A stretch of DNA of 57,359 nucleotides from Candidatus Hodarchaeota archaeon (GTDB lineage Archaea; Asgardarchaeota; Heimdallarchaeia; Hodarchaeales; Hodarchaeaceae), in NCBI GenBank assembly GCA_016839815.1, contig JAEOTM010000160.1:1-57359 (forward strand). The letters are read 5' to 3'. The notes beneath the pieces are model-generated. The model was given only the letters and a program-made list of their open reading frames with translations. It had not been told where the DNA came from and did no database searches. Shown piece by piece: positions 25,628 to 57,105 of this stretch. Made by a program: the position numbers and the translations under genes. Every line of letters starts with the position of its first letter. Within the stretch, counting starts at the first letter, position 1.

Positions 25628-25634
25628 TCTATTC

Positions 25635-33723: not shown

Positions 33724-33959
33724 ATGGAAATTAATCCTTTCTTTATTACAAACGTCTGATAAATGGCTCAGACATTAAAGATACACGTGTAAATTAAATC
33801 TCCGACACACGGATTAAAAATGGAATAGAAACTTTAAAAGAGATTCCAAACTAAAAATTAGTTCAGGGATGTATAAAATTTATCAGGTATTTCAATAGAA
33901 ATTTATGTTTAGAATCCTGAATTAGATTAATTAATACTTACTCCTTTCAGGTAATTATA

Positions 33960-34343: not shown

Positions 34344-34352
34344 AAGTTCTCT

Positions 34353-34565: not shown

Positions 34566-34566
34566 T

Positions 34567-35019: not shown

Positions 35020-35030
35020 GTTTTTTTTCC

Positions 35031-35975: not shown

Positions 35976-36148
35976 GATTTTTCACAACTGTCACTTAAAA
36001 ATGATTTTTTTCGCTTATTAATCTCACAATTTCTTTATTAATGCCTTTTGGTGGAGGAGGTAAGATTTCTGTTAAAGATTTTCCCTGCACTAATAAAGGA
36101 TAATTTTTAAAAAGAATCTCTAGAATCAAGATCGTATACGAGAGTCCT

Positions 36149-37180: not shown

Positions 37181-37187
37181 ACTTCCC

Positions 37188-41031: not shown

Positions 41032-42165
41032 ATGTCTGAATGGGATTTAATTCTTTACACAGATGATAAGCAGAAAAATGTCAAGAATAAGCTAAAGCTT
41101 TCCGATAAAACCTTGTCTGCTGCAGGACAACACGGAAAAGCCACGATTTTGATTGATAATAAAGGGAAAGAATGGCTTCTTAAAGTCTTTTCAAAGATTC
41201 TTGACCTAGATGTGAAAAAAGTATCTGACCTAGACATCGATATCAAAGATACACCTGAACGTAGTCGTGATCGACTTCATTTATGGAGAGTACTAAACGA
41301 AATCACTGCTTCACGACTTGGCAGGCGGTTATACTTAAATGTACCAGAAACACATCTTATTTGTTCTGGGAAAATTGCTAAACTCGCACTTACACCCTCC
41401 ACTATCCTGAAAGAGGAAGATGTCGTTGTTTTGGATGAGGAAGAGGAAGAGGGAGAGACAGCCGAGGAATTCTATTTGTACTCGGAACGAGAAGTTGGAT
41501 CTTTAAAAACTTCAACTCGTTTTGAAAATCTTCTTGCTAAAAAAAGTAGTCGTGAAGATTCCACCGATGTACTGGCATTACTCCAAGAAAAAATTCCGAA
41601 TAGTCAAAATATTGATGAATACTTGGAAACTCAAAAAGCGGACTTAGATGGAGCTTTTGCTACAATACAAAGTATTGATGATGCTTTTCTACTTTTACCG
41701 TTTGATATCTGGTTAAATGACCCTGATCGTAATGCTGGAAACTATTTAATTCAGTTGAACCAAAAGAACGTAGCTTCAAAAATATGGGGCATTGATTACG
41801 AAATGTGGTCCTTTGGAAGTGATATTTGGATGGAAGAAGATAATATAACTCAAGGTAGAAGTTATCTCACTGCTATCATTCATCCTAAAAGCCATATATT
41901 TGATTCACGAGTTAATCAAACTTTTTATCGAATACGAATGCTTTCTGATGAGGAAGTTATTAAAATGACGAAGGCTCCACAGTTAGCCTGTAAATTTTTT
42001 GAATATCATGTAAATAAAGAAAATTTATCTTCTGATGAAAGAGAAAAATTGAAACAGGTGGAAGTTAACTTAGAAGATTTTCTTATTGAGTCACGACCAC
42101 GATCAGATAAACTTAGCGAAATCATAGCGAGGCAAATTGGATTACCAAAGGATTTTAAAACGTGA
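41032..42165 (+). CDS. hypothetical protein, possible HipA-like/atypical kinase fold
   Basis: LPFDIWLNDPDRNAGNYLIQ resembles a HipA-type catalytic loop (DxxxxN). Weak. Confidence 0.3.
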   Translation: MSEWDLILYTDDKQKNVKNKLKLSDKTLSAAGQHGKATILIDNKGKEWLLKVFSKILDLDVKKVSDLDIDIKDTPERSRDRLHLWRVLNEITASRLGRRLYLNVPETHLICSGKIAKLALTPSTILKEEDVVVLDEEEEEGETAEEFYLYSEREVGSLKTSTRFENLLAKKSSREDSTDVLALLQEKIPNSQNIDEYLETQKADLDGAFATIQSIDDAFLLLPFDIWLNDPDRNAGNYLIQLNQKNVASKIWGIDYEMWSFGSDIWMEEDNITQGRSYLTAIIHPKSHIFDSRVNQTFYRIRMLSDEEVIKMTKAPQLACKFFEYHVNKENLSSDEREKLKQVEVNLEDFLIESRPRSDKLSEIIARQIGLPKDFKT

Positions 42166-42172: not shown

Positions 42173-43348
42173 CTATCCATTTAGTTCCAGTAGTTTCTGA
42201 GATTTTAACGCCATCAGGTATTCTTCATTAGTTGGTATTACTAGAACTTGAACTTGAGAATTATTGGCTGAAATTGTTGTTTCTTCTTCCCCAATTGCTT
42301 CTTTATTACTAGAAGAGTCTAGAATTACGCCTAAACTTCCTAATCCATCCATGATTAATTCTCGGAAATACGGGGATCTTTCACCTATTCCACCCGTAAA
42401 TATAATTACATCTAATCCTCCCAATACAACAGAGTAGGCTCCTATATATTTCTGAATCCGATAAACAGCCATTTGGATAGCTAACTGCTCTTTTGAGTGT
42501 CCGCTCTGAGCACGGCTCTGGATATCACGCATATCTCTAAATCGGCCTGTAATTCCTAAGAAACCACTTTGAGAATTCAGTTCATAATCAATTTGATCTA
42601 TTGACAAGTTTTCAGATCGCATCATGGCAAGCATTATTCCTGGGTCAAGATCCCCAGAGCGAGTACCCATTATCAGTCCTTCAAGAGGAGTTAATCCCAT
42701 ACTTGTATCGACAGATTTTCCATCGTAGATAGCTGTTACTGATGCTCCATTACCGAGATGTAAAACGATAATTCTCTTACAATTTTCTGATTCCAATTTA
42801 TCTATAGCTCTATTGGTTACATATTCAACAGATGTACCATGAAAACCATATCTTCGATAAGAGTATTTTTCATACCATTTTCTTGAGATCGCATACTGAA
42901 AGGCATATTCTGGAATAGTATTATGAAATGAGGTGTCAAAAACAGCAATATGAGGAATTTTTGGGAGTTTCTTCTTACTAGCACGAATTCCCATGAGATT
43001 TGCAGGATTATGAAGCGGAGCAAGCTCAGAAAGATTTTTTATTTGGTTTTCAATCTCATTATCAATGACCACTTCTTTCCGGAACTCTTCACCACCATGT
43101 ACAACTCTATGGGCTACCGCGGCAATATCCTCTAAATTGAAAAATTTTAAAACATAATCAAGAGCATCTTCATGGTTCTTACAGCTTATTTCCTTTTTAA
43201 GCTCTTTATCTTCACCATTATGGACAATTTGAGAATTGGATAAACCAATCCTTTCTACTAATCCTTTAGCTAATAGCTGTTCAGATTCCATATTGTAAAT
43301 CGAATATTTGAGAGAAGATGAACCAGAATTTATGGTTAGGATAATCAA
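42173..43348 (-). CDS. ackA: acetate kinase
   Basis: MIILTINSGSSSLKY N-terminal ASKHA motif, VHGG, HLGNG, IFTGGIGE signature motifs. 391 aa. Confidence 0.9.
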   Translation of the reverse strand: MIILTINSGSSSLKYSIYNMESEQLLAKGLVERIGLSNSQIVHNGEDKELKKEISCKNHEDALDYVLKFFNLEDIAAVAHRVVHGGEEFRKEVVIDNEIENQIKNLSELAPLHNPANLMGIRASKKKLPKIPHIAVFDTSFHNTIPEYAFQYAISRKWYEKYSYRRYGFHGTSVEYVTNRAIDKLESENCKRIIVLHLGNGASVTAIYDGKSVDTSMGLTPLEGLIMGTRSGDLDPGIMLAMMRSENLSIDQIDYELNSQSGFLGITGRFRDMRDIQSRAQSGHSKEQLAIQMAVYRIQKYIGAYSVVLGGLDVIIFTGGIGERSPYFRELIMDGLGSLGVILDSSSNKEAIGEEETTISANNSQVQVLVIPTNEEYLMALKSQKLLELNG

Positions 43349-43358
43349 CCAAAACCCT

Positions 43359-44807
43359 CTAATAAGTACCTGACTTCGAATCGGTTCCTTTTACGATAGC
43401 TATTGAGGCAGAAGCTCCAATTCTAGTTGCACCCGCGTTGATCATTTGTTCTGCAATTTCATGAGTTCTAATTCCACCTGCAGCCTTTACTCCCATTTCT
43501 GGACCTACTGTTTTGCGCATGAGTGCGATATCCTCAACTAATGCTCCTGCGGTGCTAAAACCAGTGGAAGTTTTCACAAAATCTGCACCACTTAATTTTG
43601 TTAAAAGGCTACCTTTCACAATTTGCTCCTTGGTTAGTAGAGCAGTTTCAAGAATAACTTTAACAATAGCTTTTCCAGCCGCAGCATTTACAACAGCTTG
43701 GATATCTTCCCTAACTAGATCGTCATTTCCTGATTTTAAAGCACCAACGTTAATCACCATATCTACTTCTTCTGCACCATTTGCTATAGCATCACGTGTC
43801 TCAATGGCTTTTACTGTTGGAGTTGTGGCTCCTAAAGGAAAACCAATTACGGTACACACTTTTACAGAACTACCTTTCAGATATTTTGCTGCTTTTGAGA
43901 CGTTTGTTGGATTAATACACACTGTGGCAAATTTATACGTAGCTGCTTCTTCACAAAGCTGTTTAATCTCTTCATCCGTCGCATCTGCACGTAAATTCGT
44001 GTGATCGATGTATTGAGCCAACCCCATATCATAACCGTTAATTCCCGTTTCAGAGGTTATCCTTGTGGCTCCTCCATTAACTAATGCTTTGACTGCAACT
44101 TGAGATTTTCCATCTAAGCCAATATCTTTTCCTGCAGTCCCAACTGTGTAGGTACGACTAGAGGGGGATGGAATATAAGAAGAAGGATCCTGATCGGTAA
44201 GATTTTGTACCTCTACAATTTTTATTCCCATAGATCTTAATTGATCTACAATCCCTTCAATTCTTCTATTCATAGCTGGTGGCACTTGATCTTTTTCAAT
44301 TTGACAACAATATATTGAATCATAAGCAGCAATCACAGGTTTTCCATACATCAATCCGAAAACAAGTGTAATTGTACCAAGAGTATCTGCATTTAACGCA
44401 GCCACCTTAGCTGCTGTATTTAAAGAAAGAATAGGCACATAGATAACATCAATTTTTCCTAAGATGTTTTCAAAATACTCTTCGGAATAATCTGTGATAA
44501 TCATAGCTCCTTCAGAGACTTTTCTAATATCAGGCATTCCGATGATTTTGATAGCTGCACGAGTCATAACGATGTACGTATTTGTATAGGATTTAGTTAT
44601 TAGTTCTATTTGATGCATTACTTCATTGATTTCTTTATTTCCACCGCATAGGAGAATCAAAGCAGAGGTTCCTGAGGAAATACTGTAATTTACTTTCTTA
44701 TTAGAAGTCTGTAACCTTGGGTTTGACTGTGTTGGAGGAGTAAGTGAATCCTGATCAAGCTTTCTCATAACCTCCTCTGTAATTTTTTGTATCATTTCAT
44801 TACTCAT
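43359..44807 (-). CDS. deoC: deoxyribose-phosphate aldolase (DeoC) with N-terminal encapsulation-peptide-like helix and ~200-aa extra domain
   Basis: C-terminal ~230 aa align with DeoC, including Schiff-base Lys in FVKTSTGF. N-terminal [17 protein letters not shown] amphipathic helix plus linker. Middle alpha/beta domain unassigned. Confidence 0.8.
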
Positions 44808-44826
44808 TTAGTATACCTTCTTGACC

Positions 44827-45117
44827 TTAACTTAATTCTATTTGTTTTCCGTTGACTTCGACGTAGTCCACGACACCTATTATTAATGCATCAACCGCTG
44901 CTTTATCATTTTGCATTATCCCTCGTATAGAGTTACCTTCGCGAATCACAAGAACACAATCTCCAATTCCGGCTTTTGCTGTATCCAACGCGATAATTGA
45001 TGGATCAGTAAACTCTCCTTTCAAATCTATCGGACGTACTACTAGTATCTTTCCATTTTCATGACTTTCCGTCTTGATTGGAGCTACTACATTCCCAATA
45101 ACTTTAGCAAGAATCAT
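44827..45117 (-). CDS. BMC vertex protein (BMC-P, EutN/PduN/CcmL family)
   Basis: 96 aa, MILAKVIGNVVAPIK...GIGDCVLVIREG...IIGVVDYVEV is the EutN fold. Confidence 0.85.
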   Translation of the reverse strand: MILAKVIGNVVAPIKTESHENGKILVVRPIDLKGEFTDPSIIALDTAKAGIGDCVLVIREGNSIRGIMQNDKAAVDALIIGVVDYVEVNGKQIELS

Positions 45118-45656
45118 TCTGACTCACTCACTACAGGTTCAGGCTCAATTTCTTGAATTTTTTTTGGTATTTTCTTTCTAACTGATTTTTTCCTAGGTTT
45201 TTTCTTAGGAATAGGTTTCGTTTCTTCATCTACTTCCGCAGGAGGAACTTTAGATTTAGGGATCGATTCTAGAGCTGTTTTTTCTGTAATTTCCCTGATT
45301 TCTTCCTCAGGTTCTTCCTCAAGTGGTTTCAGTGTGGGTGGTGGTGCTTTCTTCTTCCGTTTTCTCTGAGGTTTTCGTTTTGCACTTTTAGTTACATAAT
45401 ACTCCTCTACATAACCTACAATACACTCATCAATTGGAACAAGCTCTTTCGGAAATACAATAGCTGCTTCTTTTTTACTGACAACATATACAATATCTCC
45501 AGGTCCTGCCGTCTCGATTCCATCAGCAGCAACATAAGGGGTTCCTAAGGGCTGAAGATTATCGTCTAATCCTTGGACTATTAGAAGTCGTAATGAATTC
45601 AAACCTGGATCTTTTGTCGAGGCAACAACATTTCCTATTACTTTACCAAGTTTCAT
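45114..45656 (-). CDS. BMC-P vertex protein with ~90-aa Lys/Glu/Pro-rich C-terminal tail
   Basis: N-terminal 90 aa EutN-like (MKLGKVIGNVVAST...). C-terminal KRKPQRKRKKKAPPPTLKPLEEEPEEE...KKKPRKKSVRKKIPKK is low-complexity. ATGA overlap with the downstream gene. Confidence 0.8.
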   Translation of the reverse strand: MKLGKVIGNVVASTKDPGLNSLRLLIVQGLDDNLQPLGTPYVAADGIETAGPGDIVYVVSKKEAAIVFPKELVPIDECIVGYVEEYYVTKSAKRKPQRKRKKKAPPPTLKPLEEEPEEEIREITEKTALESIPKSKVPPAEVDEETKPIPKKKPRKKSVRKKIPKKIQEIEPEPVVSESE

Positions 45657-45660
45657 ATAA

Positions 45661-46119
45661 TCACGCTGACTTCAGATATTTTAATTCAATTTCAGTAATT
45701 TTATTCACTCTCGTTTCATGCCTTCCTCCACCAACTGGAGTAGTCAACCAGATTTTAACAATATTTTGAGCAATACCAGGTCCGATAACTCTTGCACCTA
45801 AAGTTAGGACATTTGAGTTATTGTGTTCTCGTGCAGAATTAGCAGTAAATTCATCAGTACATGGAGTAGCTCTGATTCCTTTTATCTTGTTGGCAATAAT
45901 TGCACTAGCAACTCCTGTTCCATCGATTATAATTCCTACGGATTCTAAGGACACAGCTACTGTCTGAGCCACTAATAAAGCGATATCAGGATAATCCACA
46001 GGATCAGTAGAATAACATCCATAATCTGTAACGTCATATCCTAATCCTTTAAGGAATTTAATCAAATCTTTCTTCAGATGATATCCTCCATGATCGGATC
46101 CAATTATTATTTTCTTCAT
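45661..46119 (-). CDS. rpiB: ribose-5-phosphate isomerase B / sugar-phosphate isomerase (RpiB/LacAB)
   Basis: MKKIIIGSDHGGYHLK...GCYSTDPVDYPD...GTGVASAIIANK...VLTLGARVIG is the RpiB family, 152 aa. Confidence 0.85.
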   Translation of the reverse strand: MKKIIIGSDHGGYHLKKDLIKFLKGLGYDVTDYGCYSTDPVDYPDIALLVAQTVAVSLESVGIIIDGTGVASAIIANKIKGIRATPCTDEFTANSAREHNNSNVLTLGARVIGPGIAQNIVKIWLTTPVGGGRHETRVNKITEIELKYLKSA

Positions 46120-46144
46120 TTGAATTCAACATGTTAAATAGACT

Positions 46145-46690
46145 TTAAAGTAGAGTTTTCACTAAATCGGGGTGAGGAGCAGGAATTATTGCTATAGAGA
46201 GTATTAATCCTTCGCCCTTTACGCGATTAACCCCTGCTTCCACAGCTGCTCTTACAGCACCAACTTCTCCTGTTAAGACTACGAAAGCTTTTCCACCAAT
46301 TGCACGACTCATCCGAATTTCGACTAGCCGCACCTGTGCACTTTTCACAGCCTCATCACCAACCATTATGGCCGTTGGAGCAGAATATGTTTCGACGACT
46401 CCGATTGCACCAACTTCATCGATATTTGTTGAACCTGCAATTGCGGGGAATACCTCAGGGTGAATGTTTGGTATCACTGTATAATTTACTAGGGTTTCAC
46501 CAGCGATTTCACTTCCAGCAATCAAGGAGCTTTGAACAGCTGCAACTGCTCCTTGAATTATTATCAAATACTTCCCAGGGCATACTGGTGATGCGAATAG
46601 CAGCTCTACGTCAGCTGTTTTTACAATCGTATCCGCACTTAATATACCTCGAGCAATTACATTCGTCTCAAGAACTCCGATTGCGCGCAT
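46145..46690 (-). CDS. BMC-T tandem-domain shell protein, PduT-like with conserved Fe-S cysteine
   Basis: Two BMC domains in 181 aa. SPVCPGKYLII matches PduT ICPGKFLL (the Cys that ligates the trimer 4Fe-4S). Second domain AIGVVETYS... Confidence 0.8.
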   Translation of the reverse strand: MRAIGVLETNVIARGILSADTIVKTADVELLFASPVCPGKYLIIIQGAVAAVQSSLIAGSEIAGETLVNYTVIPNIHPEVFPAIAGSTNIDEVGAIGVVETYSAPTAIMVGDEAVKSAQVRLVEIRMSRAIGGKAFVVLTGEVGAVRAAVEAGVNRVKGEGLILSIAIIPAPHPDLVKTLL

Positions 46691-46766
46691 TTATCTTACC
46701 TCTTTGACCGTAAATAAAGATGAAAGTAGTGAATATTAGCTGCTTTATCCACAGCTAATCGTTCAT

Positions 46767-47045
46767 TCAACCTTTCTTTGGAAGTATACTCTCAACTTCA
46801 TCATGAGGTCGTGGAATCACATGAGCTGAAGTTAATTCACCAACTTTTCGCGCAGCAACTGCACCAGCTTCAACAGAAGCTTTGACAGCACCTACATCAC
46901 CTCTAACCATTACAGTGACGAATCCACCGCCAATAACTTCGCGTCCCATTAGATGAACGTTCGCTGCTTTCACCATAGCGTCAGCCGCTTCAATAGATGC
47001 AACTAACCCTTTTGTTTCTATTAATCCAAGTGCTTCTTTAGCCAT
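46767..47045 (-). CDS. BMC-H hexameric shell protein (PduA/EutM-like)
   Basis: [27 protein letters not shown]...[23 protein letters not shown] is the canonical Pfam00936 sequence. Confidence 0.9.
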
Positions 47046-47071
47046 TTTTTATTTCACCAATTTTTCTTGTT

Positions 47072-48397
47072 TTATTTTGTCTTTTCAATGACAATTTCTT
47101 GTCCAATATGCCGGATAATCCCGCTGATACTCGCGTGAATTACCGCACCTAGTGACCCATCAGGAATTTTCCCAATGAGTGCACCTTTTTCTACCGTTTC
47201 TCCTACTTTCACAATGGGAATAGCAGGGTCACCGATATGTTGTTTGAGAGGTATTGAGACTTGTCGAACCTGCATCTTCCGTTTTTGAATTGGACAATCG
47301 TGATTATAACTAATTAAATCCAATCGAGAAATTAGTCGTTTTACAGGTAGTTTTCGGTATTCCCTCTCAGGATGAATCGATAGTACTTTTCGATTATGAG
47401 AATTTTTTAATCCTTCCGCTCTCAACTGTTCTTTAACTTCTGTCATCATTTTACAGGGATCTAAACCCATAGGACATCCATAATAAGTACAGGCTCCACA
47501 TTCTACACAAAGGAATGTTCCAGTCATATATTCAGGTCTTTCGGGTGCTCCCCAAGCTATACCTCGCATGACTTTATCAGGGTATAATTCATGACCTAAC
47601 AAAAACCTAGGACACACTTCTGTGCATAATTGGCATCTTATACAGGCCGCTTTGGTAACTATAACTTTAGAGGAAATCCTTTCATTTTTCATTTTTAAAA
47701 CGAAATGATCCTTAGGTAAGACTATAATTCCAGAAGTTAATTTTGTAATAGCTTCTTTAGGATCAATAGCTTTACCCATCATTGGACCATTAATTAATAT
47801 ACCATAATTATCGATTGTAGCTCCTCCTGCGGCTTTGATTGCATCTTTTATGGAGGTGCCTATTGGAAAATCCATAGTAGTGGGATTTTTTACTGCACCT
47901 GTAATAGTAACGTATCGAGAGACAATCGATTTGCCTTCAGAAGCTTCAGAAAGGTTTATTAACGTGTATACATTATTAACTACCACCCCTATATCAAGAG
48001 GAAGCCCACTTTCCGGAATTATTTTCCCTAAGGCCTCATACACTAGAACATGCTCATCTCCAGCAGGATAAACATCATCTAGTAGGAGAATTTCAAGTCG
48101 TGAATCTGTTTTTATTACCTGTTTTAGCTTCTTAATTGCAGCTTTATATTTTCTTTTTACTGCAATAATCCCTCTTTTTGCCCCAGTTGCTTTCATCCCT
48201 AATTGTAGTCCATTCACTAATTTTTCTGGGAAAGCTACCATTAATTGTTGATCTACTCGTAAAAGAGGTTCACATTCTGCTGCATTCACAATGTAGGTAT
48301 CCACTTTTGCAGATAGCTTTATATGAGTAGGAAAGCCAGCTCCTCCTGCTCCTACTATACCAGAATTGCGAGCCATTTCTACAATATCGGAACTCAA
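47072..48397 (-). CDS. PduS/RnfC-like Fe-S flavoprotein oxidoreductase
   Basis: GAGGAGFPT NAD(H)-binding motif and two 4Fe-4S motifs (CIRCQLCTEVCP, CVECGACTYYGCP). 441 aa. Confidence 0.75.
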   Translation of the reverse strand: MSSDIVEMARNSGIVGAGGAGFPTHIKLSAKVDTYIVNAAECEPLLRVDQQLMVAFPEKLVNGLQLGMKATGAKRGIIAVKRKYKAAIKKLKQVIKTDSRLEILLLDDVYPAGDEHVLVYEALGKIIPESGLPLDIGVVVNNVYTLINLSEASEGKSIVSRYVTITGAVKNPTTMDFPIGTSIKDAIKAAGGATIDNYGILINGPMMGKAIDPKEAITKLTSGIIVLPKDHFVLKMKNERISSKVIVTKAACIRCQLCTEVCPRFLLGHELYPDKVMRGIAWGAPERPEYMTGTFLCVECGACTYYGCPMGLDPCKMMTEVKEQLRAEGLKNSHNRKVLSIHPEREYRKLPVKRLISRLDLISYNHDCPIQKRKMQVRQVSIPLKQHIGDPAIPIVKVGETVEKGALIGKIPDGSLGAVIHASISGIIRHIGQEIVIEKTK

Positions 48398-48423
48398 CTA
48401 ATTTTGCCTCTTTTATGATAATA

Positions 48424-49851
48424 TCATATTATTCTGAAAGCATCTACAAGAGTACATCGTCTTTGTCTTGTAAAGGTTCTTGCAGAGGTAAGTCCTTCTC
48501 CTGTTGGACCTGCTATCGTCATGGTAGTGTACCCCTCTCCTCCGAAACCTATTCCAGCCAATGATGGTGCATTTTTAACGAAGATGGTTGTTTCTATATT
48601 TTTTGCTACTAAACTCATATTCCCTACTGAATCACTCCACATCATTGCTGTATGCTTAAATCCATGTTCTGCTTTCTTAGCCTTTCGTAACGCTTCCTCT
48701 ATTGTCTTAACCCGAACTATTGGGAGAACAGGCATTAACATCTCAGAAATCACAAATGGGTGTTCATCATCAGGCACCTCAGCAATTATTAAGCGAATAT
48801 TATCGCTAACTTGGATACCTATTCCCTCAAGAATTACTTTAGCATCTTTCCCAATGAAATCTCTATTGACGATAGGAAATCTTCCCTTCTTCCCTGTAAA
48901 CACAAGATTCTCCAATTGAATGATTTGGTCTCCAGTAAGTTCATATGCCCCATAATTCTTCATTTCTGCCTTTAATCGGTTCGTAATTGCGTCAAATGCA
49001 AAGACTTCCTTTTCAACAATGCAAACAATATTATTATCAAAACTTGCACCTTCCACAATCCCCCTCGCTGCTTTTTGAATATCAGCTGTATCATCCACAA
49101 TGACAGGAGGATTTCCTGGACCAGCACAGACTGCTTTCTTTCCAGATTGCATAGCCGCTTTAACAACCGCACTACCCCCAGTTACTACCAAGCATCTTAT
49201 TTTCTTGTGGGTCATTAGAGTCTGTGCTGACTTGATTGTGGGGGATATTGTTGACGTAAGCACATTCTCTGGACCTCCAGCTTCTAAAATTGCCCTATTC
49301 AATAATCTGACTGCTTCATTACTTGCTCTTTTAGCTGAGGGATGAGGATTAAAAACTACTGAATTTCCTGCAGTAACCATTGAAATTCCGTTGTTAATAA
49401 CGGTTGCAGTTGGATTGGTCGAGGGCGTAATAGATCCAATTACACCGTATGGGGCCATTTCAACTAATGTTAATCCTTTATCTCCTGTCCATGTATTTGG
49501 TACTAAATCTTCTAGCCCAGGAGTCTTACGGGCACATAATAAGTTTTTTGCAACCTTATCCTCTAATCGTCCTAAATTAGTCTCTTGAATTGCTAATTCA
49601 GCAAGATATCGGGAATGTTTGATGGCTGTATCACGCATTGATTGGATAATTTCTTTACGCTTTTCAAGTGAAAGATCCATTAATGCAGTTTGACTTTTTT
49701 CTGCAGCTTCAATGGCCTGCTCAATGTTCTGAAATATACCCCCTCCTGCAACGGCGGGGAGATTTTCTAAACCCGAATAAACCTGATAAGCACGTATTTT
49801 TTGTACAACAGTATTGACGATTTTGGCAATTTGTTGTTCATCATATGTCAT
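48424..49851 (-). CDS. CoA-acylating aldehyde dehydrogenase (EutE/PduP family) with N-terminal encapsulation-peptide-like helix
   Basis: Strong EutE-like blocks (GPGNPPVIVDDTADI, catalytic Cys in DNNIVCIVEKEVF, C-terminal TSARTFTRQRRC). N-terminal EQQIAKIVNTVVQKI amphipathic helix. Confidence 0.85.
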   Translation of the reverse strand: MTYDEQQIAKIVNTVVQKIRAYQVYSGLENLPAVAGGGIFQNIEQAIEAAEKSQTALMDLSLEKRKEIIQSMRDTAIKHSRYLAELAIQETNLGRLEDKVAKNLLCARKTPGLEDLVPNTWTGDKGLTLVEMAPYGVIGSITPSTNPTATVINNGISMVTAGNSVVFNPHPSAKRASNEAVRLLNRAILEAGGPENVLTSTISPTIKSAQTLMTHKKIRCLVVTGGSAVVKAAMQSGKKAVCAGPGNPPVIVDDTADIQKAARGIVEGASFDNNIVCIVEKEVFAFDAITNRLKAEMKNYGAYELTGDQIIQLENLVFTGKKGRFPIVNRDFIGKDAKVILEGIGIQVSDNIRLIIAEVPDDEHPFVISEMLMPVLPIVRVKTIEEALRKAKKAEHGFKHTAMMWSDSVGNMSLVAKNIETTIFVKNAPSLAGIGFGGEGYTTMTIAGPTGEGLTSARTFTRQRRCTLVDAFRII

Positions 49852-49899
49852 TTAATTACCTTCACTTAAATGTAATTTCTATGTTGAATGAGGGAATCA

Positions 49900-50190
49900 T
49901 CACTTTCTATAGCTTTCTTTTCCATTTATCTGTATGAAATCAATTATTGCTTGAATTGTTGCATCAGTTGGTCGATCTTTAGTCATTGCAGTCAGACGAG
50001 AGGAGCTACCTGTTACAACTAACACTAATTCATCTTCTCCTGCTCCAACTGCATCAATAGCTACAAAGGGAGAGCTCTCTGGTTTTAGGTCAGTCATGTC
50101 CACTGGTTGAACAATTAAGAGTTTAAAACCTTTAATACCGGCATCCTTCTCAGTACTTACTACATTTCCGATAACCTTACATACTTTCAT
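49900..50190 (-). CDS. BMC vertex protein (BMC-P)
   Basis: MKVCKVIGNVVSTEK...GAGEDELVLVVTGSS is the EutN/CcmL fold, 96 aa. Confidence 0.85.
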   Translation of the reverse strand: MKVCKVIGNVVSTEKDAGIKGFKLLIVQPVDMTDLKPESSPFVAIDAVGAGEDELVLVVTGSSSRLTAMTKDRPTDATIQAIIDFIQINGKESYRK

Positions 50191-50201
50191 GTATTTTTCA
50201 C

Positions 50202-50921
50202 CTAAATCTTAATGATTTTTATATCTAGCATTTTGGCCTTTTCGTGAGCTAGAGGCGTTATAATAGTTGAATGTGGTACAAATATTTCATGAGTTTTACC
50301 TTGTAAATTCTCTAAATAATCTTCAGTTATTAAATCTGGAATAGCGGGAGTATGTTTGACAAATTGGTCAGCTAAATCGTCAACATTTACTAATCTAAAT
50401 CCCATTTCAATCAAAGTGGAAAGGTGTTTGCTCAATTGATTGGTCAATATCCCAGACGGCCCATAAGCAAACGTTAGTTCTGTTGGAGGAAATGGAGTAA
50501 CTATATAAACTGGAATTTGAGATAACAAGCCTTGAAGTAATAAATTAACTGTTGAATTAGAATCTTCTAAATGGGTGATTTTGTTAGCAAGCTCAAAACT
50601 AAAAGCACCATACATTACTGATTCAAGGTCGTTGTAAAACTGTAAACAAAAATCTCCGCTCGATTTAATTATAATATCCATAGTTGGAATTGATGCAGCT
50701 CGTGATGTGAATTTGAGGGCATCATTAATATCTTTCTTAGTCCAAATTAGAATCTTCGCCTGTTTTTGAGCTAGTCTGACAAGAGCATTGAACAAATCAT
50801 CCAGTCCTTGCCCCATATGTGTTAAGATGCCTAGTATTTCATATGGTCCAAGTTTTTGGTCAGGTGTGAGAACACTTCTTACTTGCTGAGTTACAAGTGA
50901 TTCAAGCTCTTTCTCATTCAA
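50202..50921 (-). CDS. BMC-associated protein of unknown function with N-terminal encapsulation-peptide-like helix
   Basis: KELESLVTQQVRSVL amphipathic N-terminus plus linker, then a 200-aa alpha/beta domain with no recognised motif. Embedded between shell genes. Confidence 0.4.
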   Translation of the reverse strand: MNEKELESLVTQQVRSVLTPDQKLGPYEILGILTHMGQGLDDLFNALVRLAQKQAKILIWTKKDINDALKFTSRAASIPTMDIIIKSSGDFCLQFYNDLESVMYGAFSFELANKITHLEDSNSTVNLLLQGLLSQIPVYIVTPFPPTELTFAYGPSGILTNQLSKHLSTLIEMGFRLVNVDDLADQFVKHTPAIPDLITEDYLENLQGKTHEIFVPHSTIITPLAHEKAKMLDIKIIKI

Positions 50922-50938
50922 GATGATAACCTTCTTCC

Positions 50939-51259
50939 TTAATCTCTACCAGGATCTTCTTCTACACTTGAGGTCCGCTTTCTGACTTTCTCAATTAGCT
51001 CGATTGTCACCTTATCTGGCCGTGGAATCACATTGGTAAGTAACCCACAGGAAATCTTACGAAGTTGCTGTTTTGCAGCTTCAATTGCTTCATGAACTGC
51101 TGCAACCTCACCCTCAATGATCACTATCACAAGACCACCAGAAACACGTCTTAATGAAATTAGATTCACATCAGCAGCTTTCATAGCTGTATCTGTGGCT
51201 ACAATAGCACCGATGCGTCCACAAGTCTCCATGAATCCAATTGCGTCCATAATTTTCAC
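50939..51259 (-). CDS. BMC-H hexameric shell protein
   Basis: DAIGFMETCGRIGAIVATDTAMKAADVNLI...GGLVIVIIEGEVAAVHEAIEAA. 106 aa. Confidence 0.85.
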   Translation of the reverse strand: MKIMDAIGFMETCGRIGAIVATDTAMKAADVNLISLRRVSGGLVIVIIEGEVAAVHEAIEAAKQQLRKISCGLLTNVIPRPDKVTIELIEKVRKRTSSVEEDPGRD

Positions 51260-53112
51260 CTGAATGGAGAAAAAGCCTCTTTATCTAAATCCGTGATTAA
51301 TGTCCCCATTTCTCCATTATTCAGTGCTAAGGCATTACCCTCATCAAGGTCCAGATGCAACTCCAGACTATAATCAGGATGAACTCTAATCATGACCTCA
51401 TCTAATATTCCTGCTCGTGTTCCTGGAAATTTAACCGCTACTACCTGTTTATCATTTACACTTAGTCTTTGTGCATCTTTGGGTGACATGTGAATGTGTC
51501 GTGCAGCAAATATAACTCCTTTTTCTAGTGTGATTGCTCCTTTGGGGCCAAGAAGATGTACCCCAGGAGTACCTGCTAAATTTCCTGATTGACGTGTAGG
51601 TGGATTTATCCCTAAAACATACCCATCACTACGAGAAATTTCTACTTGGGTCTCTTTTCTAAAAGGACCAAGAATTCGTACCCCATAGATTGCTCGTTTA
51701 GGACCAATTAAATCAACTACTTCTTCACATGCATATTCTTTCGGCTGGGAAAGGGAATTTAGAGGAGTTAGAGATGCATCTTCTCCAAAAAGTTTATGGA
51801 AATCACTCTTTTCCAAATGAATATGCCGTGCAGAGAGAGAGACTGGAATCTGGTTATCGCTAATAACTTTGGACAACTCTTGAGTAATAATCCTTCTTAC
51901 TAAGTTTTTATTACTTGGAGAACTATTTCGGTGAGTAATCGGTTGATACTCACACCCTAGAGGACCACAATATCTACCTACATACTCCGCAGATGGTCGA
52001 TAAATTACAGGCTTAACTGAAGGTGTTTCTGGATATTTTTCTTCCAATACATGAGCTGTCCACCCTGCTACTCTTGATGTTGTAAAGATTGGTGTAAATA
52101 AATCTACAGGTATGTTAAGACTCGTATAAACTGTAGCTCCATATAAATCTACGTTGGGATAGATCCCCCGATTCTTTCTCCGCTTAAATTCAGCCTGCGT
52201 AATCTCAACCATTTTATTTGTAGTTTCGTACATCCACTTAGCAATTCCCCCCTTCTGTTTAACAAGATCACCTGCCATTTCCTTGAGTATTTTGGCCCTT
52301 GGATCAATTGTTCGATAAACAGCATGACCCATTCCCATAACTCGTTTACCAGCATTAAAACGATTCTTTACCCATTCTTCAATACTTGGGGCTTTTTTGA
52401 TTTCCATTAAACTCTCATAGACAAGATAATTCGCTCCTCCATGATATTGTCCTGATAATGATCCGATTGCTCCAGAAATAGCTGCATAGAGATCTGCTCC
52501 TGTTGAGGCGATGACTCTTGCAGTAAATGTGGATGCATTAAAGGAATGTTCAGCATGCAAAATTAATGAGACATCAAAGATTCTTGTTTCTTCCTTTGGG
52601 GGGATTTTTCCATGAAGCATAAAAAGAAAATTAGCTGCATAGTTTAATTTGGGATTCGGCGATATAGGATCCTTATTATTTCTTATTCGTTCCCATGCAG
52701 TCACTATTATAGGGAGAAGCGCAATGATTTTTACTGCAATATTTCGATCTGACTCTTTTGTCCCTCTCCCTATCTCAGTATCATATCCTGCTAATAAGGC
52801 TAAAGACGATTGAAGAACACTCATGGAAGGAGTTGCTTTTGTAGTTTTTTGTAAATGAGTTATCAACTCTGAAGGGAGCTTTTGGTTTGATCGAATTGAA
52901 GTCTTGAATGATTTCAATTTGTCTAAAGAGGGGAGTTTTCCAAACAAAAGTAAATATACTACTTCTTCGTACGTTGAATTTCTCGCTAAATCCTTTATGT
53001 CATATCCACGAATAAAAAGATTCCCCTTATCTCCTTCAATCAAGCAAATATTAGTATCTGCAACTTCGACTCCACGGAGACCAGTTGATTTGTGGCTATG
53101 TTCTTCAATCAT
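51256..53112 (-). CDS. fusion protein: citrate-synthase-like domain (N) + PduL-type phosphotransacylase (C)
   Basis: Residues 1-~390 carry citrate-synthase-family blocks (LILHAEHSFNASTF, GMGHAVYRTIDPRA, RVAGWTAHVLEE). Residues ~400-618 carry two PduL (PF06130) repeats (ARHIHL, ARHIHM). ATGA overlap with the downstream BMC-H. Confidence 0.75.
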   Translation of the reverse strand: MIEEHSHKSTGLRGVEVADTNICLIEGDKGNLFIRGYDIKDLARNSTYEEVVYLLLFGKLPSLDKLKSFKTSIRSNQKLPSELITHLQKTTKATPSMSVLQSSLALLAGYDTEIGRGTKESDRNIAVKIIALLPIIVTAWERIRNNKDPISPNPKLNYAANFLFMLHGKIPPKEETRIFDVSLILHAEHSFNASTFTARVIASTGADLYAAISGAIGSLSGQYHGGANYLVYESLMEIKKAPSIEEWVKNRFNAGKRVMGMGHAVYRTIDPRAKILKEMAGDLVKQKGGIAKWMYETTNKMVEITQAEFKRRKNRGIYPNVDLYGATVYTSLNIPVDLFTPIFTTSRVAGWTAHVLEEKYPETPSVKPVIYRPSAEYVGRYCGPLGCEYQPITHRNSSPSNKNLVRRIITQELSKVISDNQIPVSLSARHIHLEKSDFHKLFGEDASLTPLNSLSQPKEYACEEVVDLIGPKRAIYGVRILGPFRKETQVEISRSDGYVLGINPPTRQSGNLAGTPGVHLLGPKGAITLEKGVIFAARHIHMSPKDAQRLSVNDKQVVAVKFPGTRAGILDEVMIRVHPDYSLELHLDLDEGNALALNNGEMGTLITDLDKEAFSPFR

Positions 53113-53346
53113 TGGTAGGCCTTTTTTTGTCAGCTATTATTTCTGTATCAGAAGGAAAAATCTGCTTTCCTTAAAACAGTTTTTTGTGAATCGTCTGACG
53201 ATTCAAAATTAGGAATCTCTCACAAACTTCTTGAATGCTACTCTGGTTAAATTATGAGACTTGTTTTGCAAACTAGAAAACCAATATTACTATATAATAG
53301 TGAGTAGCTTTCTCTAGAAGATTGTACATTACAGAAGGTTCAATTA

Positions 53347-54291
53347 GTGTTAATTAGAGGTTTTTCACTTGACACATCTTACCATTGTTCTGATTGTCAT
53401 TTGAAATGTTGTGCAACTGAATTCAATCTACCCCTGTGTGGATCAGAAAAATCGATTCTGAGTCAATATTACCCCGAATATCAGTTTTACCTTCAATCAA
53501 CTACAGATGGAGATTATATCCTTCGTGGGAATTCATGTCCGTTTTTAACAAACAATGGTTTGTGTCAGCTTCATTCTAAACATTTGAAACCACTCACATG
53601 TCAAATTTACCCGTTATTGTTTTGGCGATATTCCACCACCGATACTTTAGTCTCAATTCATCCTTGTCGGGGAAATGGGTTCAGTTGGTACTCAAGAAGT
53701 AATTCGCAGATCAGCAATCCTCAGCTTGAAGAACTTTTAACCAAGGCAAACATGCATTTTGAATCCTATTGGGGAGAAAATATAGACAAAAATAATCCCT
53801 ACGCAGGTATTTCCCCTACAAGGATTGAATCCCAAATAGATTACTATAATACCATTCCAGAAGACCAGTTATTGGTAAAAATAACAAGTGATTCTAATCT
53901 ACCTTCTCGATTTCTGGATTCTCAATCATCCTCTGAAAAAACCCTTATTATGATTAAAGATGGTATAGTAGGGAGATATCTAAATTCTGTACTTAATTGG
54001 CTGATTTGGAGTCCCGTAGGACTTCAGCTATCAATAAAAAACGCTCAAATGATATTTTCTGTAGCAGCTTTCTGGTTGATTAAACAGACAGAATTGAATC
54101 CTAAAATCAAAACCACTATCTTAAACAGTACTGACTATACCGAGCAAGTGGCTTCATATTATGCGAGTTCCATCCTTCCAACGTTCTGGCTTAAGATCGT
54201 CTCTGAGAGAGAAAATAAGGCTCTAAGTTCTTTCGCTAAAAAAGTATACTTAATTCTCATGGGAAAACTCTCTCAGGAGGATTTACTATAA
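53347..54291 (+). CDS. YkgJ/UPF0153-family Cys-rich (putative Fe-S/Zn) protein
   Basis: CSDCHLKCC (CxxCxxxCC) plus later Cys pairs. 314 aa. Confidence 0.45.
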   Translation: MLIRGFSLDTSYHCSDCHLKCCATEFNLPLCGSEKSILSQYYPEYQFYLQSTTDGDYILRGNSCPFLTNNGLCQLHSKHLKPLTCQIYPLLFWRYSTTDTLVSIHPCRGNGFSWYSRSNSQISNPQLEELLTKANMHFESYWGENIDKNNPYAGISPTRIESQIDYYNTIPEDQLLVKITSDSNLPSRFLDSQSSSEKTLIMIKDGIVGRYLNSVLNWLIWSPVGLQLSIKNAQMIFSVAAFWLIKQTELNPKIKTTILNSTDYTEQVASYYASSILPTFWLKIVSERENKALSSFAKKVYLILMGKLSQEDLL

Positions 54292-54643: not shown

Positions 54644-55231
54644 TCAGATTTTGTTTCTGTCTATATTTCTTACTACTCCATACTTTCCTCTAGAGTAAGT
54701 TAGCATTCCAGGATATCCATCTGTTTTCCACTGATCGTCAAGATGTAGTGCAACAATTCTTCCAAGGAATAAATCATGTGTACCCAGACTGATGATTTGG
54801 TCTACCTTACATTCCATACTAGCTGGGCATTCTTTAATTTGAGGAACATCAACAATTTTACTTTTCACTCTAGTAAAATTACATACTGACCACTTATCAA
54901 TCTCTCGTCCAGATTTAGTTCCACAGAGTTCCACTTCTTTAAGTATTAATTCTGTAGGAAAGTTGATTACAAATTCTTCTGTCTCCTTAATTATATCGTA
55001 AGTATATCTTTCAGGTCTTACGCCTATTGAGACTATTGGAGGATTTGAACAACTCGTTCCTGCCCAAGATAGTGTTATTATTGATTCTTTTGTATTGTGT
55101 TTTGCTGATACTAAGATCACAGGATTAGGATAAAAGAACGTACTTATACTTACCTCATTCTTCATAGATAAACTCTTCCTATACTTCCTTTTATGGAATA
55201 ACTTGAAATTGATTGTCTTATCAATTCCCAT
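54644..55231 (-). CDS. flavin reductase-like FMN-binding protein
   Basis: NPVILVSAK...SIITLSWAG...PPIVSIGV...TEEFVINFP...CGTKSGREIDKW is the flavin_reduct split-barrel pattern. Confidence 0.7.
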   Translation of the reverse strand: MGIDKTINFKLFHKRKYRKSLSMKNEVSISTFFYPNPVILVSAKHNTKESIITLSWAGTSCSNPPIVSIGVRPERYTYDIIKETEEFVINFPTELILKEVELCGTKSGREIDKWSVCNFTRVKSKIVDVPQIKECPASMECKVDQIISLGTHDLFLGRIVALHLDDQWKTDGYPGMLTYSRGKYGVVRNIDRNKI

Positions 55232-56214: not shown

Positions 56215-57105
56215 TTAGAGGTAGGTTTCAGGTTCCTTTCTGTCTGAGTAACCTTTATTCAGATCACTTTGTGATTTGAGGACGCGGTGGCTCATAACGC
56301 GTGCACCAGTGGGACAGTTTTTGACGCAGGCACAACACCAGATACATGCATTGTGGTCGGTAGAAATCAACCGAAGATTATAACCAATCATTGGTGAGGG
56401 ATTGGATGATACATGTTGGATTCGAATCGCGGCCGTAGGGCATACATCAACACATGTTCCGCATTTCGTACATTGGTCCTCGCTGGTGGAAGGAGTGGCT
56501 AATTCGCCGTAGTCGTACCAGGTGAGATTAGCCCGCATCGACAACGAGTATGGGCTTGTGCCAGGGGGAGTTACGGGGGAGAGGTTCTCAATCGTATCAG
56601 CTTTCGCATATTTGGCTCGGATCTGTTTTCCAAAGGCTTCTGCTTTGGCGAGATCCTTTGCGTCTGGTCGTCCATGCGCGGTTGGCACCTCTGGGAGGCT
56701 AAACGAGTGTTCACATAAGAAGACGCCCGCAGCGATGGGTTGGAATCCTACTTCCGAGACGATGTCACCTAATTCATATAATGCATCCTCATAGGCTCGG
56801 TTGCCGTAGGTAACCACAATGACGGCGGGGATTTTGTGTGGACGTTTGGTACCGTAGGGTTCTCGGTTGCTTGTTAGCCTGCGTATCCGATAGGCAGCTT
56901 CAGTAGGTACACGCCCTGCATAGACTGGTACAGAGATGATGGTGAGCTCATCGGTGAATTCTGAAAATTTCTGAGTTCGTGCACTCGGTGGGGTCAAATC
57001 AACATATTCTATGGGGGCTTGGATGCCTTTGGCGATAGTTTCAGCCACTTTTCTTGAGCCCCCCGTTGGGGAGAAACTGATAACTTGTACTGCCTTAATT
57101 TTCAA
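56215..57105 (-). CDS. flavodoxin-like domain + 2x[4Fe-4S] ferredoxin-domain protein
   Basis: N-terminal flavodoxin-like fold, C-terminal CTKCGTCVDVCP and CIWCCACVKNCP. Gene GC markedly higher than its surroundings. Confidence 0.7.
   Translation of the reverse strand: MKIKAVQVISFSPTGGSRKVAETIAKGIQAPIEYVDLTPPSARTQKFSEFTDELTIISVPVYAGRVPTEAAYRIRRLTSNREPYGTKRPHKIPAVIVVTYGNRAYEDALYELGDIVSEVGFQPIAAGVFLCEHSFSLPEVPTAHGRPDAKDLAKAEAFGKQIRAKYAKADTIENLSPVTPPGTSPYSLSMRANLTWYDYGELATPSTSEDQCTKCGTCVDVCPTAAIRIQHVSSNPSPMIGYNLRLISTDHNACIWCCACVKNCPTGARVMSHRVLKSQSDLNKGYSDRKEPETYL

Follow-up and report, generated by a model that had tools for sequence, protein, structure and literature searches.

The 57,359-nt stretch of Hodarchaeales DNA analyzed here (contig JAEOTM010000160.1, hereafter the window) carries a 13-gene operon that is a type I archaeal microcompartment (AMC), the class described for Hodarchaeales by Du et al. 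(bioRxiv, Nov 2025; PMC12747264). We are confident in reading it as a vertically inherited metabolosome of the SPU class, which came from bacteria (probably a Myxococcota-like source) and was remodeled in the archaeal lineage. That preprint reported operons of this type and tested them in part by experiment, so the operon is confirmed and important biology that is already known, not new. The novelty implied by the original prediction, which was made from the sequence alone, therefore does not hold, as Hodarchaeales SPU microcompartments with the exact gene set had been described.

Exactly 13 co-directional genes from the open reading frame list fill positions 42173 to 53112 on the minus strand, as had been predicted (Table 1). 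The tight packing was also borne out, with intergenic gaps of -4 to 76 nt, but the "several ATGA overlaps" were reduced to two 4-nt overlaps, one GTGA and one ATGA. Pfam matches for the shell and enzyme genes were all well over the gathering scores. Purifying selection acts on each of the 13 genes (dN/dS 0.00-0.13), with similar values for MetRS and E2. Four features were overlooked in the first reading: a fusion of citrate synthase with PduL (CS-PduL), a Flav-DeoC fusion, the 92-aa K/R tail of P2, and DUF as the thirteenth gene.

Table 1. Positions of the microcompartment genes, their promoter region, and the two flanking genes in the window.
Feature	Position	Strand	Evidence
Cys-rich protein, operon neighbor	53347-54291	opposite to operon	
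Divergent intergenic (promoter) region	53113-53346	.	TTATATA box and palindrome
Citrate synthase (residues 1-~395) + PduL/PTAC (residues ~420-605) fusion, 618 aa	51256-53112	-	PF00285 3.4e-119; PF06130 3.8e-71
BMC-H shell hexamer H1	50939-51259	-	PF00936 5.4e-22; dN/dS 0.06-0.07
"DUF" cargo protein	50202-50921	-	Amphipathic helix, flavoprotein-like fold, C-terminal BMC-associated motif
BMC-P vertex pentamer P1	49900-50190	-	PF03319 2.9e-29
CoA-acylating aldehyde dehydrogenase, EutE/PduP type (AldDH)	48424-49851	-	PF00171; PRK15398
MNdh, PduS-like metabolosome NADH dehydrogenase	47072-48397	-	PF01512; PF10531 (SLBB); PF13534 (Fer4_17); PF13375 (RnfC_N)
BMC-H shell hexamer H2	46767-47045	-	PF00936 7.2e-29; 96-100% aa identity to relatives
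BMC-T(S), PduT-like tandem-domain trimer, CPGK	46145-46690	-	Two PF00936 domains, 3.7e-43
RpiB, ribose-5-phosphate isomerase B (RpiB/LacAB family)	45661-46119	-	PF02502 7.5e-51; TIGR01120
BMC-P pentamer P2 with 92-residue tail	45114-45656	-	PF03319 at residues 1-83
BMC-P pentamer P3	44827-45117	-	PF03319 4.4e-21; ATGA overlap with P2
Flav-DERA fusion, 482 aa	43359-44807	-	PF01791; TIGR00126 deoC
Acetate kinase, final operon gene	42173-43348	-	PF00871 2.9e-134
Kinase-like orphan, operon neighbor	41032-42165	opposite to operon	

The shell complement is the predicted one of two BMC-H, three BMC-P, and one PduT-like BMC-T, and profile searches, a check named with the original prediction, support each assignment. 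PF00936 occurs once in each of the H1 and H2 genes and twice in the BMC-T gene, and PF03319 in each of the three BMC-P genes, so that three genes of each kind lie with enzymes within less than 11 kb, as in the definition of a BMC locus (Axen 2014; Sutter 2021). The start of H1 is ambiguous between a GTG, which gives the 4-nt overlap with the upstream stop, and an ATG 9 nt downstream. H2 is the most conserved of the operon's genes. The BMC-T protein matches PDB 3nwg (7.6e-48) and PduT itself (3n79, 1.3e-38), with its VCPGKY aligned to the pore cysteine of PduT, and from this CPGK motif it is predicted to be an electron-transfer tile (BMC-T^SE). The C-terminal tail of P2 is disordered and holds 27 K/R and 18 D/E residues. 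A K/R-rich tail was found on P2 in every type I locus examined (49-92 aa, the longest being the one here) and was absent from the Myxococcota BMC-P orthologue of P2.

The enzymes likewise agree with the predicted SPU core of DeoC, RpiB, aldehyde dehydrogenase, PduL, acetate kinase, and a PduS-like oxidoreductase in Pfam and, for DeoC, RpiB, AldDH, and PduL, also in NCBIfam. An acylating AldDH, PduL, and MNdh as the NAD+-recycling enzyme make up the core of a metabolosome, and no alcohol dehydrogenase was found in the operon by Pfam. SPU loci are defined by PF01791 (DeoC aldolase) together with PF02502 (RpiB) (PMC8217296); the operon has both, and their products pass the deoC (TIGR00126, 288.7 vs. 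a cut-off of 117.3) and rpiB (TIGR01120, 157.5 vs. 138.65) equivalog models. DeoC is the C-terminal half (residues ~260-480) of its protein, where it matches PDB 8qps (1.7e-82), conserves the Schiff-base lysine motif VKTSTGF, and is ~60-65% identical to characterized DERAs. The flavoprotein-like domain ahead of it (Flav, residues ~50-210) gave a weak PF02441 match (18.3 bits, E 0.0018). AldDH scores 656 bits with PRK15398 (cut-off 403), matches PDB 4c3s from residue 38 onward (5e-137), and conserves the catalytic FDNNxxC. MNdh aligns with RnfC homologues (E 4e-56) over GxGGAGFPT and two CxxCxxC...CP motifs and is predicted from these to carry two 4Fe-4S motifs along with a site for FMN/NADH. 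In the CS-PduL fusion, the PduL part (PF06130 at residues 423-597) scores 247.7 against an NCBIfam cut-off of 209 and matches PDB 5cuo (3e-50), while the other part matches archaeal/Thermus-type citrate synthases in the PDB (E 1e-80 to 1e-82); the motifs HAEH, GHAVY, NVD, and both copies of RHIH are intact. The citrate synthase falls slightly under all NCBIfam equivalog cut-offs (404.9 vs. 421.3), and its substrate may be acetyl- or propionyl-CoA.

The three cargo proteins predicted to bear encapsulation-peptide-like helices do so at their N-termini. AldDH has an extension of ~30 residues with an amphipathic helix at ~4-20 (hydrophobic moment 0.68 at 6-19), Flav-DERA has one at ~3-18 (0.72 at 6-19), and that of DUF, at 3-17, is helical in the AF2 model. 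Between the two halves of CS-PduL runs an amphipathic linker, NLVRRIITQELSKVIS, which aligns with the N-termini of unfused PTAC in two other loci (L008 and L011) and, by this alignment, would be the counterpart of the encapsulation peptide that unfused PduL has at its N-terminus. The central part of DUF is a divergent flavoprotein (HFCD/PF02441-like) Rossmann-type fold, and its C-terminus ends in a BMC-associated motif, LITE...IITPLAxEKA.

Upstream of the operon, four genomes share 83% identity in the intergenic region, compared with ~77% in coding regions. Its TTATATA box is conserved, and a 9-1-9 palindrome, TGAATCGTCAGACGATTCA, lies at 53187-53205 (chance expectation 0.02). This palindrome was not found in distant loci, and any regulatory role is therefore putative. 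The two genes that flank the operon on the opposite strand, which the same-strand rule of the published survey left out (PMC12747264), could be accessory parts in this window's lineage, for example by providing a cytosolic electron acceptor or by supplying substrate.

By sequence comparison, the closest bacterial loci to the operon are Myxococcota SPU BMCs. The best named non-Asgard matches of AldDH are from Myxococcota (57-58% identity), and in a crude, unsupported NJ tree a clade labeled Myxococcota/Deltaproteobacteria adjoins the Hodarchaeales sequences. The locus JAHJNO010000153.1, from an uncultured Myxococcota, is ordered PTAC-DUF-P-AldDH-MNdh-T-...-RpiB-...-(Flav)DeoC. It has in common with the operon PF01791 and PF02502, AldDH, PduL, the MNdh/BMC-T pair, the BMC-P triplet, the core order PTAC-DUF-P-AldDH-MNdh, a DUF homologue, and the Flav-DERA fusion. 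It lacks a citrate synthase and the K/R tail of BMC-P, has no acetate kinase next to it, and carries TIM, and protein identity between the two is only 45-58%. The best hits, the unsupported tree, and the shared core order support the original suggestion of horizontal transfer from bacteria, probably from a Myxococcota-like donor.

Observed here are the operon's genes and motifs, its synteny, selection, and composition, and its likeness to the Myxococcota locus; to these we add a model whose substrate, flux direction, and electron acceptor we infer, as we do the parts played in it by RpiB, Flav, and DUF. The substrate is probably a DNA-derived sugar phosphate. The two BMC-H proteins and the BMC-T tile would form the facets of a polyhedral shell whose vertices are closed by the three BMC-P pentamers, and cargo would be brought in by the amphipathic helices of AldDH, Flav-DERA, and DUF and by the CS-PduL linker. 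Inside, DERA would split 2-deoxyribose-5-phosphate into glyceraldehyde-3-phosphate and acetaldehyde, and AldDH would convert the latter to acetyl-CoA with formation of NADH. Two routes would recycle CoA, one through PduL, which makes acetyl-phosphate, and one through the fused citrate synthase, which makes citrate. MNdh, not an alcohol dehydrogenase, would restore NAD+, with electrons passing from its FMN through two 4Fe-4S clusters to a 4Fe-4S cluster at the CPGK cysteines of the BMC-T pore and on to a cytosolic acceptor. Acetate kinase, probably outside the shell, would make ATP from acetyl-phosphate, and the Lys/Arg-rich tail of P2 would point out from the vertices and bind nucleic acid. 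In a pathway for deoxyribose-phosphate alone, it is not obvious what RpiB would do. Nucleoside phosphorylase and phosphopentomutase, which supply deoxyribose-5-phosphate, were not found in the window.

BMC loci had been catalogued in bacteria only, up to 2021 (PMC8217296), and the nearest non-archaeal homologues of the operon are bacterial, both of which could point to a bacterial BMC contig misjoined to Asgard sequence or contaminating the bin. The surroundings make such a chimera extremely unlikely. The window carries the ESCRT genes Vps4, Vps25, EAP30, Vps28, UEV, and two Snf7, as well as ubiquitin, E1, E2, RING, Arf/Ras GTPases, TFB, and RadA. MetRS (1.2 kb from the operon) and E2 (4.5 kb) are within the 10 kb originally claimed for such archaeal markers, but ubiquitin (~10.1 kb), E1 (~10.5 kb), the ESCRT genes (15-22 kb), and TFB (34 kb) are farther away. 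The region from 37 to 56 kb, including both junctions, is collinear at ~77-78% nucleotide identity with contigs of three independently assembled MAGs, which are the closest GTDB genomes (Heimdallarchaeota B3_Heim and Hodarchaeota YT1_021 and YT2_065); MNdh is 88-89% identical to those of the closest GTDB relatives, B3_Heim among the three, and homologues carry the names Hodarchaeales or Kariarchaeaceae. The operon is also present in two closed Heimdall-group chromosomes, CP070695.1 (L005, 4.94 Mb) and CP070760.1 (L008, 3.16 Mb). The flanking genes in L008 match those here, MetRS included; L005 shares the Cys-rich protein and the 377-aa orphan, with MetRS not adjacent; and L012, a 40-kb ENA contig, shares both immediate neighbors, with MetRS adjacent. 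The tetranucleotide profile of the operon, a check suggested with the original prediction, stays inside the spread that the window itself shows (r 0.956, L1 0.128) and is not distinguishable from the rest, and sigma-70-like promoter matches were not enriched (31 found vs. 34.3 expected). The Asgard chromosomal context is thus genuine and the composition ameliorated, in line with the earlier view that this is not obviously a stray bacterial contig.

Two other explanations accept the chromosomal setting and concern what the operon does. The compartment could be real but serve another job, drawing on a different sugar phosphate or aldehyde source or acting mainly as an acetaldehyde-detoxifying, electron-exporting, or citrate-producing module. 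The substrates assigned to SPU compartments are predictions in all organisms (PMC11626177), RpiB and two flavoprotein-fold modules fall outside the proposed steps, citrate synthase is an addition of the archaeal lineage, and the TIM and class II aldolase of type II relatives point to wider sugar-phosphate chemistry. However, the DERA domain passes its equivalog model strongly and is close to characterized enzymes, and all SPU loci have in common, as a conserved signature, DERA together with an AldDH of the acetaldehyde type (PMC8217296); we consider a different job unlikely. A decaying or domesticated remnant, with cytosolic enzymes and no shell built in vivo, would fit the loss of the operon from 41% of Hodarchaeales genomes (PMC12747264), and the compartment here is predicted from its genes. 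Such a remnant is nonetheless very unlikely, as all six shell genes are intact, purifying selection on them is strong (dN/dS 0.00-0.13), and the cargo proteins have kept their encapsulation helices. Moreover, the orthologues from B3_Heim, 80-96% identical to the proteins encoded here, assembled shells in vitro (50-220 nm particles), recruited cargo in a peptide-dependent manner, and bound nucleic acid through the P2 tail, and strain SC1 transcribes the locus (PMC12747264). By this identity, shell assembly, cargo recruitment, and tail binding would apply to the proteins here as well.

We also put forward a combined reading that, taken whole, is rather unlikely: citrate synthase and the P2 tail were added after the transfer, DUF is a paralogue of Flav, and the opposite-strand neighbors are accessory parts. 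Citrate synthase would enter the shell here through its fusion, by means of PduL's own encapsulation peptide; in other loci it has as its tag a C-terminal helix of its own and an ITPLARD motif that is also on DUF. If DUF is related to the Flav domain of DERA as a cryptic paralogue with a flavoprotein fold, the lumen would contain two peptide-tagged flavodoxin-like modules, which may take part in the electron path from NADH to MNdh to BMC-T or in nucleation of the cargo core.

A metabolic organelle with a protein boundary, present in the archaea most closely related to eukaryotes, is relevant to compartmentalization in the archaeal host of eukaryogenesis and to bacterial gene flow into that host. 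Credit for extending microcompartments beyond Bacteria belongs to the published discovery (PMC12747264). The window adds independent confirmation, from another genome, of an operon that is chromosomal, ameliorated, and under selection. It also adds refinements: the flavoprotein fold of DUF, the presence of both DUF and the Flav-DERA fusion already in the Myxococcota locus, the reading of both citrate synthase and the tail of P2 as additions made on the archaeal side, and two alternative encapsulation tags for citrate synthase.

Among known systems, the enteric Eut and Pdu metabolosomes resemble the operon in trapping aldehyde with an acylating AldDH, recycling CoA with PduL, recruiting cargo by encapsulation peptides, and having PduT-like, PduA-like, and EutN-like shell proteins. 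Their signature enzyme, however, is a B12-dependent lyase or dehydratase where the operon has an aldolase, and the operon has no alcohol dehydrogenase, B12 machinery, or EutL/PduB-type BMC-T. The operon also resembles the bacterial MNdh/BMC-T^SE module, in which MNdh is defined by four domains (PF01512, PF10531, 4Fe-4S, and PF13375) and its gene is directly adjacent to that of BMC-T^SE in 97% of loci, with one gene between them in 1.8% (PMC11626177). The MNdh encoded here has all four domains and both Fe-S motifs, its BMC-T partner has the CP(G/S)K pore motif, and AldDH is present and alcohol dehydrogenase absent; unlike in most bacterial loci, the H2 gene intervenes between MNdh and its CPGK partner.

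The closest system is the type I AMC, whose reference locus is CEE45_053xx of B3_Heim (GCA_003144275) and in which AMC-P2 is extended by fusion with a disordered, K/R-rich stretch of 36-137 aa (PMC12747264). The operon, in a Hodarchaeales genome, has two AMC-H, one AMC-T^S, and three AMC-P, with a P2 tail of 92 aa, and holds the complete enzyme set (CS(+PTAC), DUF, AldDH, MNdh, RPI, Flav+DERA, and AK). A third H, TPI, and class II aldolase are absent from it, as type I demands, in contrast to the type II loci (L009, L010), where TIM and class II aldolase are added. B3_Heim has the same 13 genes, order, flanks, shell set, CPGK motif, P2 K/R tail, CS+PTAC and Flav+DERA fusions, DUF, MNdh, RPI, and AK. 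Protein identity between the two is 72-96%, and nucleotide identity over 19 kb of collinear sequence is ~78%. The window comes from a separate species-level genome (~22% nucleotide divergence) whose operon has the architecture of B3_Heim without any difference.

The operon consists of 13 genes that all lie on the minus strand, with gaps of -4 to 76 nt. Every Pfam match within it was well over its gathering threshold, and deoC, rpiB, the EutE/PduP-type AldDH, and PduL reached the cut-offs of the corresponding NCBIfam equivalog or subfamily models, while the citrate synthase was slightly under the cut-off of its closest NCBIfam model. Because these thresholds were passed, the gene inventory of the original prediction, which had been drawn up without database searches, is correct, although two protein halves (the citrate synthase in the 618-aa protein and the N-terminal one in the DeoC protein) and the BMC-P2 tail escaped it, and it did not recognise what the 13th gene is. 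The several ATGA overlaps it reported were overstated: genes overlap by 4 nt at two places, and at one of these the sequence is GTGA.

Features of the window, with the operon genes numbered in transcription order
Feature	Position	Strand	Description
Operon	42173-53112	minus	13 genes
Gene 1	53112-51256	minus	citrate synthase fused to PduL, 618 aa
Gene 2	51259-50939	minus	BMC-H1
Gene 3	50921-50202	minus	239-aa protein without Pfam match (DUF)
Gene 4	50190-49900	minus	BMC-P1
Gene 5	49851-48424	minus	CoA-acylating AldDH
Gene 6	48397-47072	minus	PduS-like MNdh
Gene 7	47045-46767	minus	BMC-H2
Gene 8	46690-46145	minus	BMC-T, tandem-domain
Gene 9	46119-45661	minus	RpiB
Gene 10	45656-45114	minus	BMC-P2, long tail
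Gene 11	45117-44827	minus	BMC-P3
Gene 12	44807-43359	minus	flavoprotein-like domain fused to DeoC (Flav-DERA)
Gene 13	43348-42173	minus	acetate kinase
Orphan	41032-42165	plus	377 aa
Cys-rich protein	53347-54291	plus	314 aa
Divergent intergenic region	53113-53346		contains a TTATATA box
Palindrome	53187-53205		TGAATCGTCAGACGATTCA
Flavin-reductase-like protein	54644-55231	minus	PF01613
Ferredoxin-domain protein	56215-57105	minus	4Fe-4S
Protein with marginal dsRBD match	1812-2495	plus	227 aa
Eukaryotic signature genes	19711-37640		Asgard type
Ubiquitin	31820-32062		ends in ...TTGGTNR
RING-H2 finger	34353-34565

Characteristic motifs are kept in both the shell and the enzymes. The whole of the BMC-T protein can be aligned to PduT-type trimers, and its pore motif VCPGKY is intact. 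In an alignment to RnfC, MNdh retains two cluster motifs of the form CxxCxxC...CP as well as its flavin/NADH loop, GxGGAGFPT. The HAEH, GHAVY, and NVD motifs are kept in the citrate synthase half of the fusion, as are both RHxH motifs in the PduL half. The DERA domain is near solved DERAs and has the Schiff-base lysine motif VKTSTGF, and AldDH has the catalytic FDNNxxC. The homology of AldDH to solved enzymes begins only at residue ~30-38, which indicates an N-terminal extension. N-terminal amphipathic helices were found in AldDH, Flav-DERA, and the DUF cargo protein, and the N-terminal peptide that unfused PduL carries in related loci has its counterpart in the citrate synthase-PduL linker NLVRRIITQELSKVIS. 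Against two related genomes, dN/dS was 0.00-0.13 in all 13 genes, with synonymous sites close to saturation, and the flanking MetRS and E2 genes fell in the same range.

The C-terminus of DUF carries a motif (LITE...IITPLAxEKA...I) that is similar to the end of TIGR02536. In other archaeal loci it recurs at the C-terminus of the citrate synthase where this enzyme is unfused, behind a helix resembling an encapsulation peptide (EP). This motif looks like a portable compartment-association module. The unfused citrate synthases of a type I locus (L011:7424-8914) and a type II locus (L010:6863-8503) have their own C-terminal extension, composed of an EP-like helix and '...ITPLARDRARE..I', the latter being the motif of the DUF C-terminus. 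The citrate synthases thus suggest targeting of this enzyme to the compartment by two alternative routes. The relationship between DUF and the Flav domain is drawn from fold and from a distant relative that has PF02441; direct BLASTP gave short patches only (E 0.001).

The remainder of the window encodes an ESCRT set (Vps4, two Snf7, Vps25, EAP30/Vps36, Vps28, and a UEV/E2-like protein), a ubiquitin system (ubiquitin, a ThiF-type E1, E2, and a RING finger), Arf- and Ras-family GTPases, TFB, RadA, and MetRS. Asgard eukaryotic signature genes are packed in a single stretch that includes the ESCRT set, a Ras/Roc GTPase, Yip1, E1, ubiquitin, a KaiC-like protein, an Arf-like GTPase, the RING-H2 finger, and E2. 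A separate observation concerns the 227-aa protein, which matches dsRBD marginally (23.7 bits, cut-off 23) and RNase III below threshold. RNase III-like proteins are not known to be common among archaea.

A mis-join of the operon to these archaeal flanks during assembly is rejected on the grounds of synteny, closed chromosomes, and composition. A GTDB-wide scan with MNdh found three close relatives, all of them Asgard (Heimdallarchaeota B3_Heim, Hodarchaeota YT2_065, and YT1_021; 88-89% identity), and BLASTN aligned window 37-56 kb collinearly to each of the three (~77-78% identity), unbroken across both operon boundaries. The operon is also present in two closed chromosomes: in CP070695.1 (4.94 Mb) it adjoins genes for ribosomal proteins L28e, L44e, and S30e, and in CP070760.1 (3.16 Mb) MetRS and both immediate neighbours are placed as in the window. 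The tetranucleotide composition of the operon relative to the rest of the window (r = 0.956, L1 = 0.128) is inside the range of the other 11-kb windows (r 0.956-0.978, L1 0.100-0.134). The archaeal chromosome context that had been claimed is borne out. A scan for bacterial promoters and terminators gave nothing over chance.

The published pipeline for archaeal microcompartments (AMCs) took same-strand genes only (Du et al., bioRxiv, November 2025; PMC12747264), and two opposite-strand genes border the operon in the window. The 377-aa orphan, convergent with acetate kinase, is found at the same position with 61-85% identity by the type I operons of the three close relatives, CP070695.1, and CP070760.1; in L012, a 40-kb ENA contig, a 376-aa gene without Pfam match occupies this position, an assignment made by position, from gene length and the lack of a Pfam match. 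The Cys-rich 314-aa protein, divergent from the operon, is at the same position in the same set of loci with 40-60% identity, L012 again being positional. The orphan gave no NCBIfam match and no PDB match by sequence or by profile, its single-sequence AF2 model was unusable (pLDDT 30.5), and its only Pfam match was a weak one to HipA_C (E 0.063). Together with this weak match, its DRNxGN...IDYE motif, LNDPDRNAGNYL...GIDYEMW, hints at an atypical kinase. The Cys-rich protein, which could not be assigned to any family, has an N-terminal CxxCxxxCC-type motif and could be a metal or Fe-S protein. On the evidence of synteny, a functional tie of these two genes to the operon is possible. Since both are missing next to the L011 type I operon and next to the type II and Myxococcota loci, the link may be plain synteny.

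The intergenic region between the Cys-rich gene and the operon is 83% identical across four genomes, which is above coding DNA. Its perfect 9-1-9 palindrome (19 bp), a candidate operator, is kept in close relatives only and was not found in the distant loci. Further out on this side are a flavin-reductase-like protein, whose conservation at this place is limited to close relatives, and a protein with a 4Fe-4S ferredoxin domain; it is conceivable that they are redox partners for exported electrons. L011 itself comes from an Odinarchaeota-labelled MAG (GCA_048885365.1, JBHLPY010000010.1). Its AldDH is 74% identical, and its flanks differ: upstream are genes of the radical SAM and Sdh/Hdr-like kinds, and downstream there is an Arf GTPase. 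Either this genome is mislabelled or mis-binned, or the operon was relocated or transferred.

Down to about 60% identity, the named AldDH matches are Hodarchaeales or Heimdall-group only, and the first named bacterial matches are Myxococcota (57-58%), followed by Firmicutes and 'Deltaproteobacteria'. In a neighbour-joining tree, which was rough and carried no support values, the type I archaeal AldDH sequences cluster, type II sequences are basal, and the nearest named bacterial clade is Myxococcota/Delta-labelled. The Myxococcota locus JAHJNO010000153.1 has the order PTAC, 251-aa protein, BMC-P, AldDH, MNdh, BMC-T, BMC-P, TIM, RpiB, BMC-H, BMC-P, BMC-H, DeoC, and the 251-aa protein is homologous to DUF (hhalign 97.6%, E 4e-12). 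While the gene calls contain the DeoC part alone (240 aa), TBLASTN recovered the whole Flav-DERA fusion there (L006:16404-17834; 45% identity over residues 3-482), so the fusion is older than the transfer and is under-annotated. Gene order and homologies agree with the horizontal transfer from Myxococcota inferred by Du et al. (PMC12747264). Unlike the window operon, the Myxococcota locus lacks a citrate synthase, and its BMC-P proteins end without a K/R tail; we suggest that this enzyme and the tail are archaeal-side additions. The closest non-compartment homologues of the citrate synthase (~56% identity) are in TCA or respiratory contexts.

SPU loci have been defined by PF01791 plus PF02502, and about 280 were reported from 26 bacterial phyla with archaea unmentioned (Sutter et al., 2021; PMC8217296). 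AMCs have since been described in 66 of 111 Hodarchaeales genomes, the type I shell having two H, one T^S with CPGK, and three P proteins with a disordered K/R-rich tail on P2, and the type I enzymes being Flav+DERA, AldDH, MNdh, RPI, AK, DUF, CS, and PTAC, with a CS/PTAC fusion 'in some lineages' (PMC12747264). The reference genome of that study, GCA_003144275 (B3_Heim), is among the three closest matches of our MNdh scan; its proteins assembled into 50-220 nm shells and its P2 tail binds DNA/RNA (PMC12747264). The predicted BMC metabolosome is confirmed and its interpretation supported. The mechanism, including electron export through MNdh/BMC-T^SE (PMC11626177), is well grounded in homology and in experiments that others have published on orthologues nearly identical to these proteins; the substrate and electron sink of the compartment we infer. 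Because the composition of the window operon is exactly that of the type I operon of Du et al., the finding is correct but rediscovers a system of which a detailed description recently appeared.
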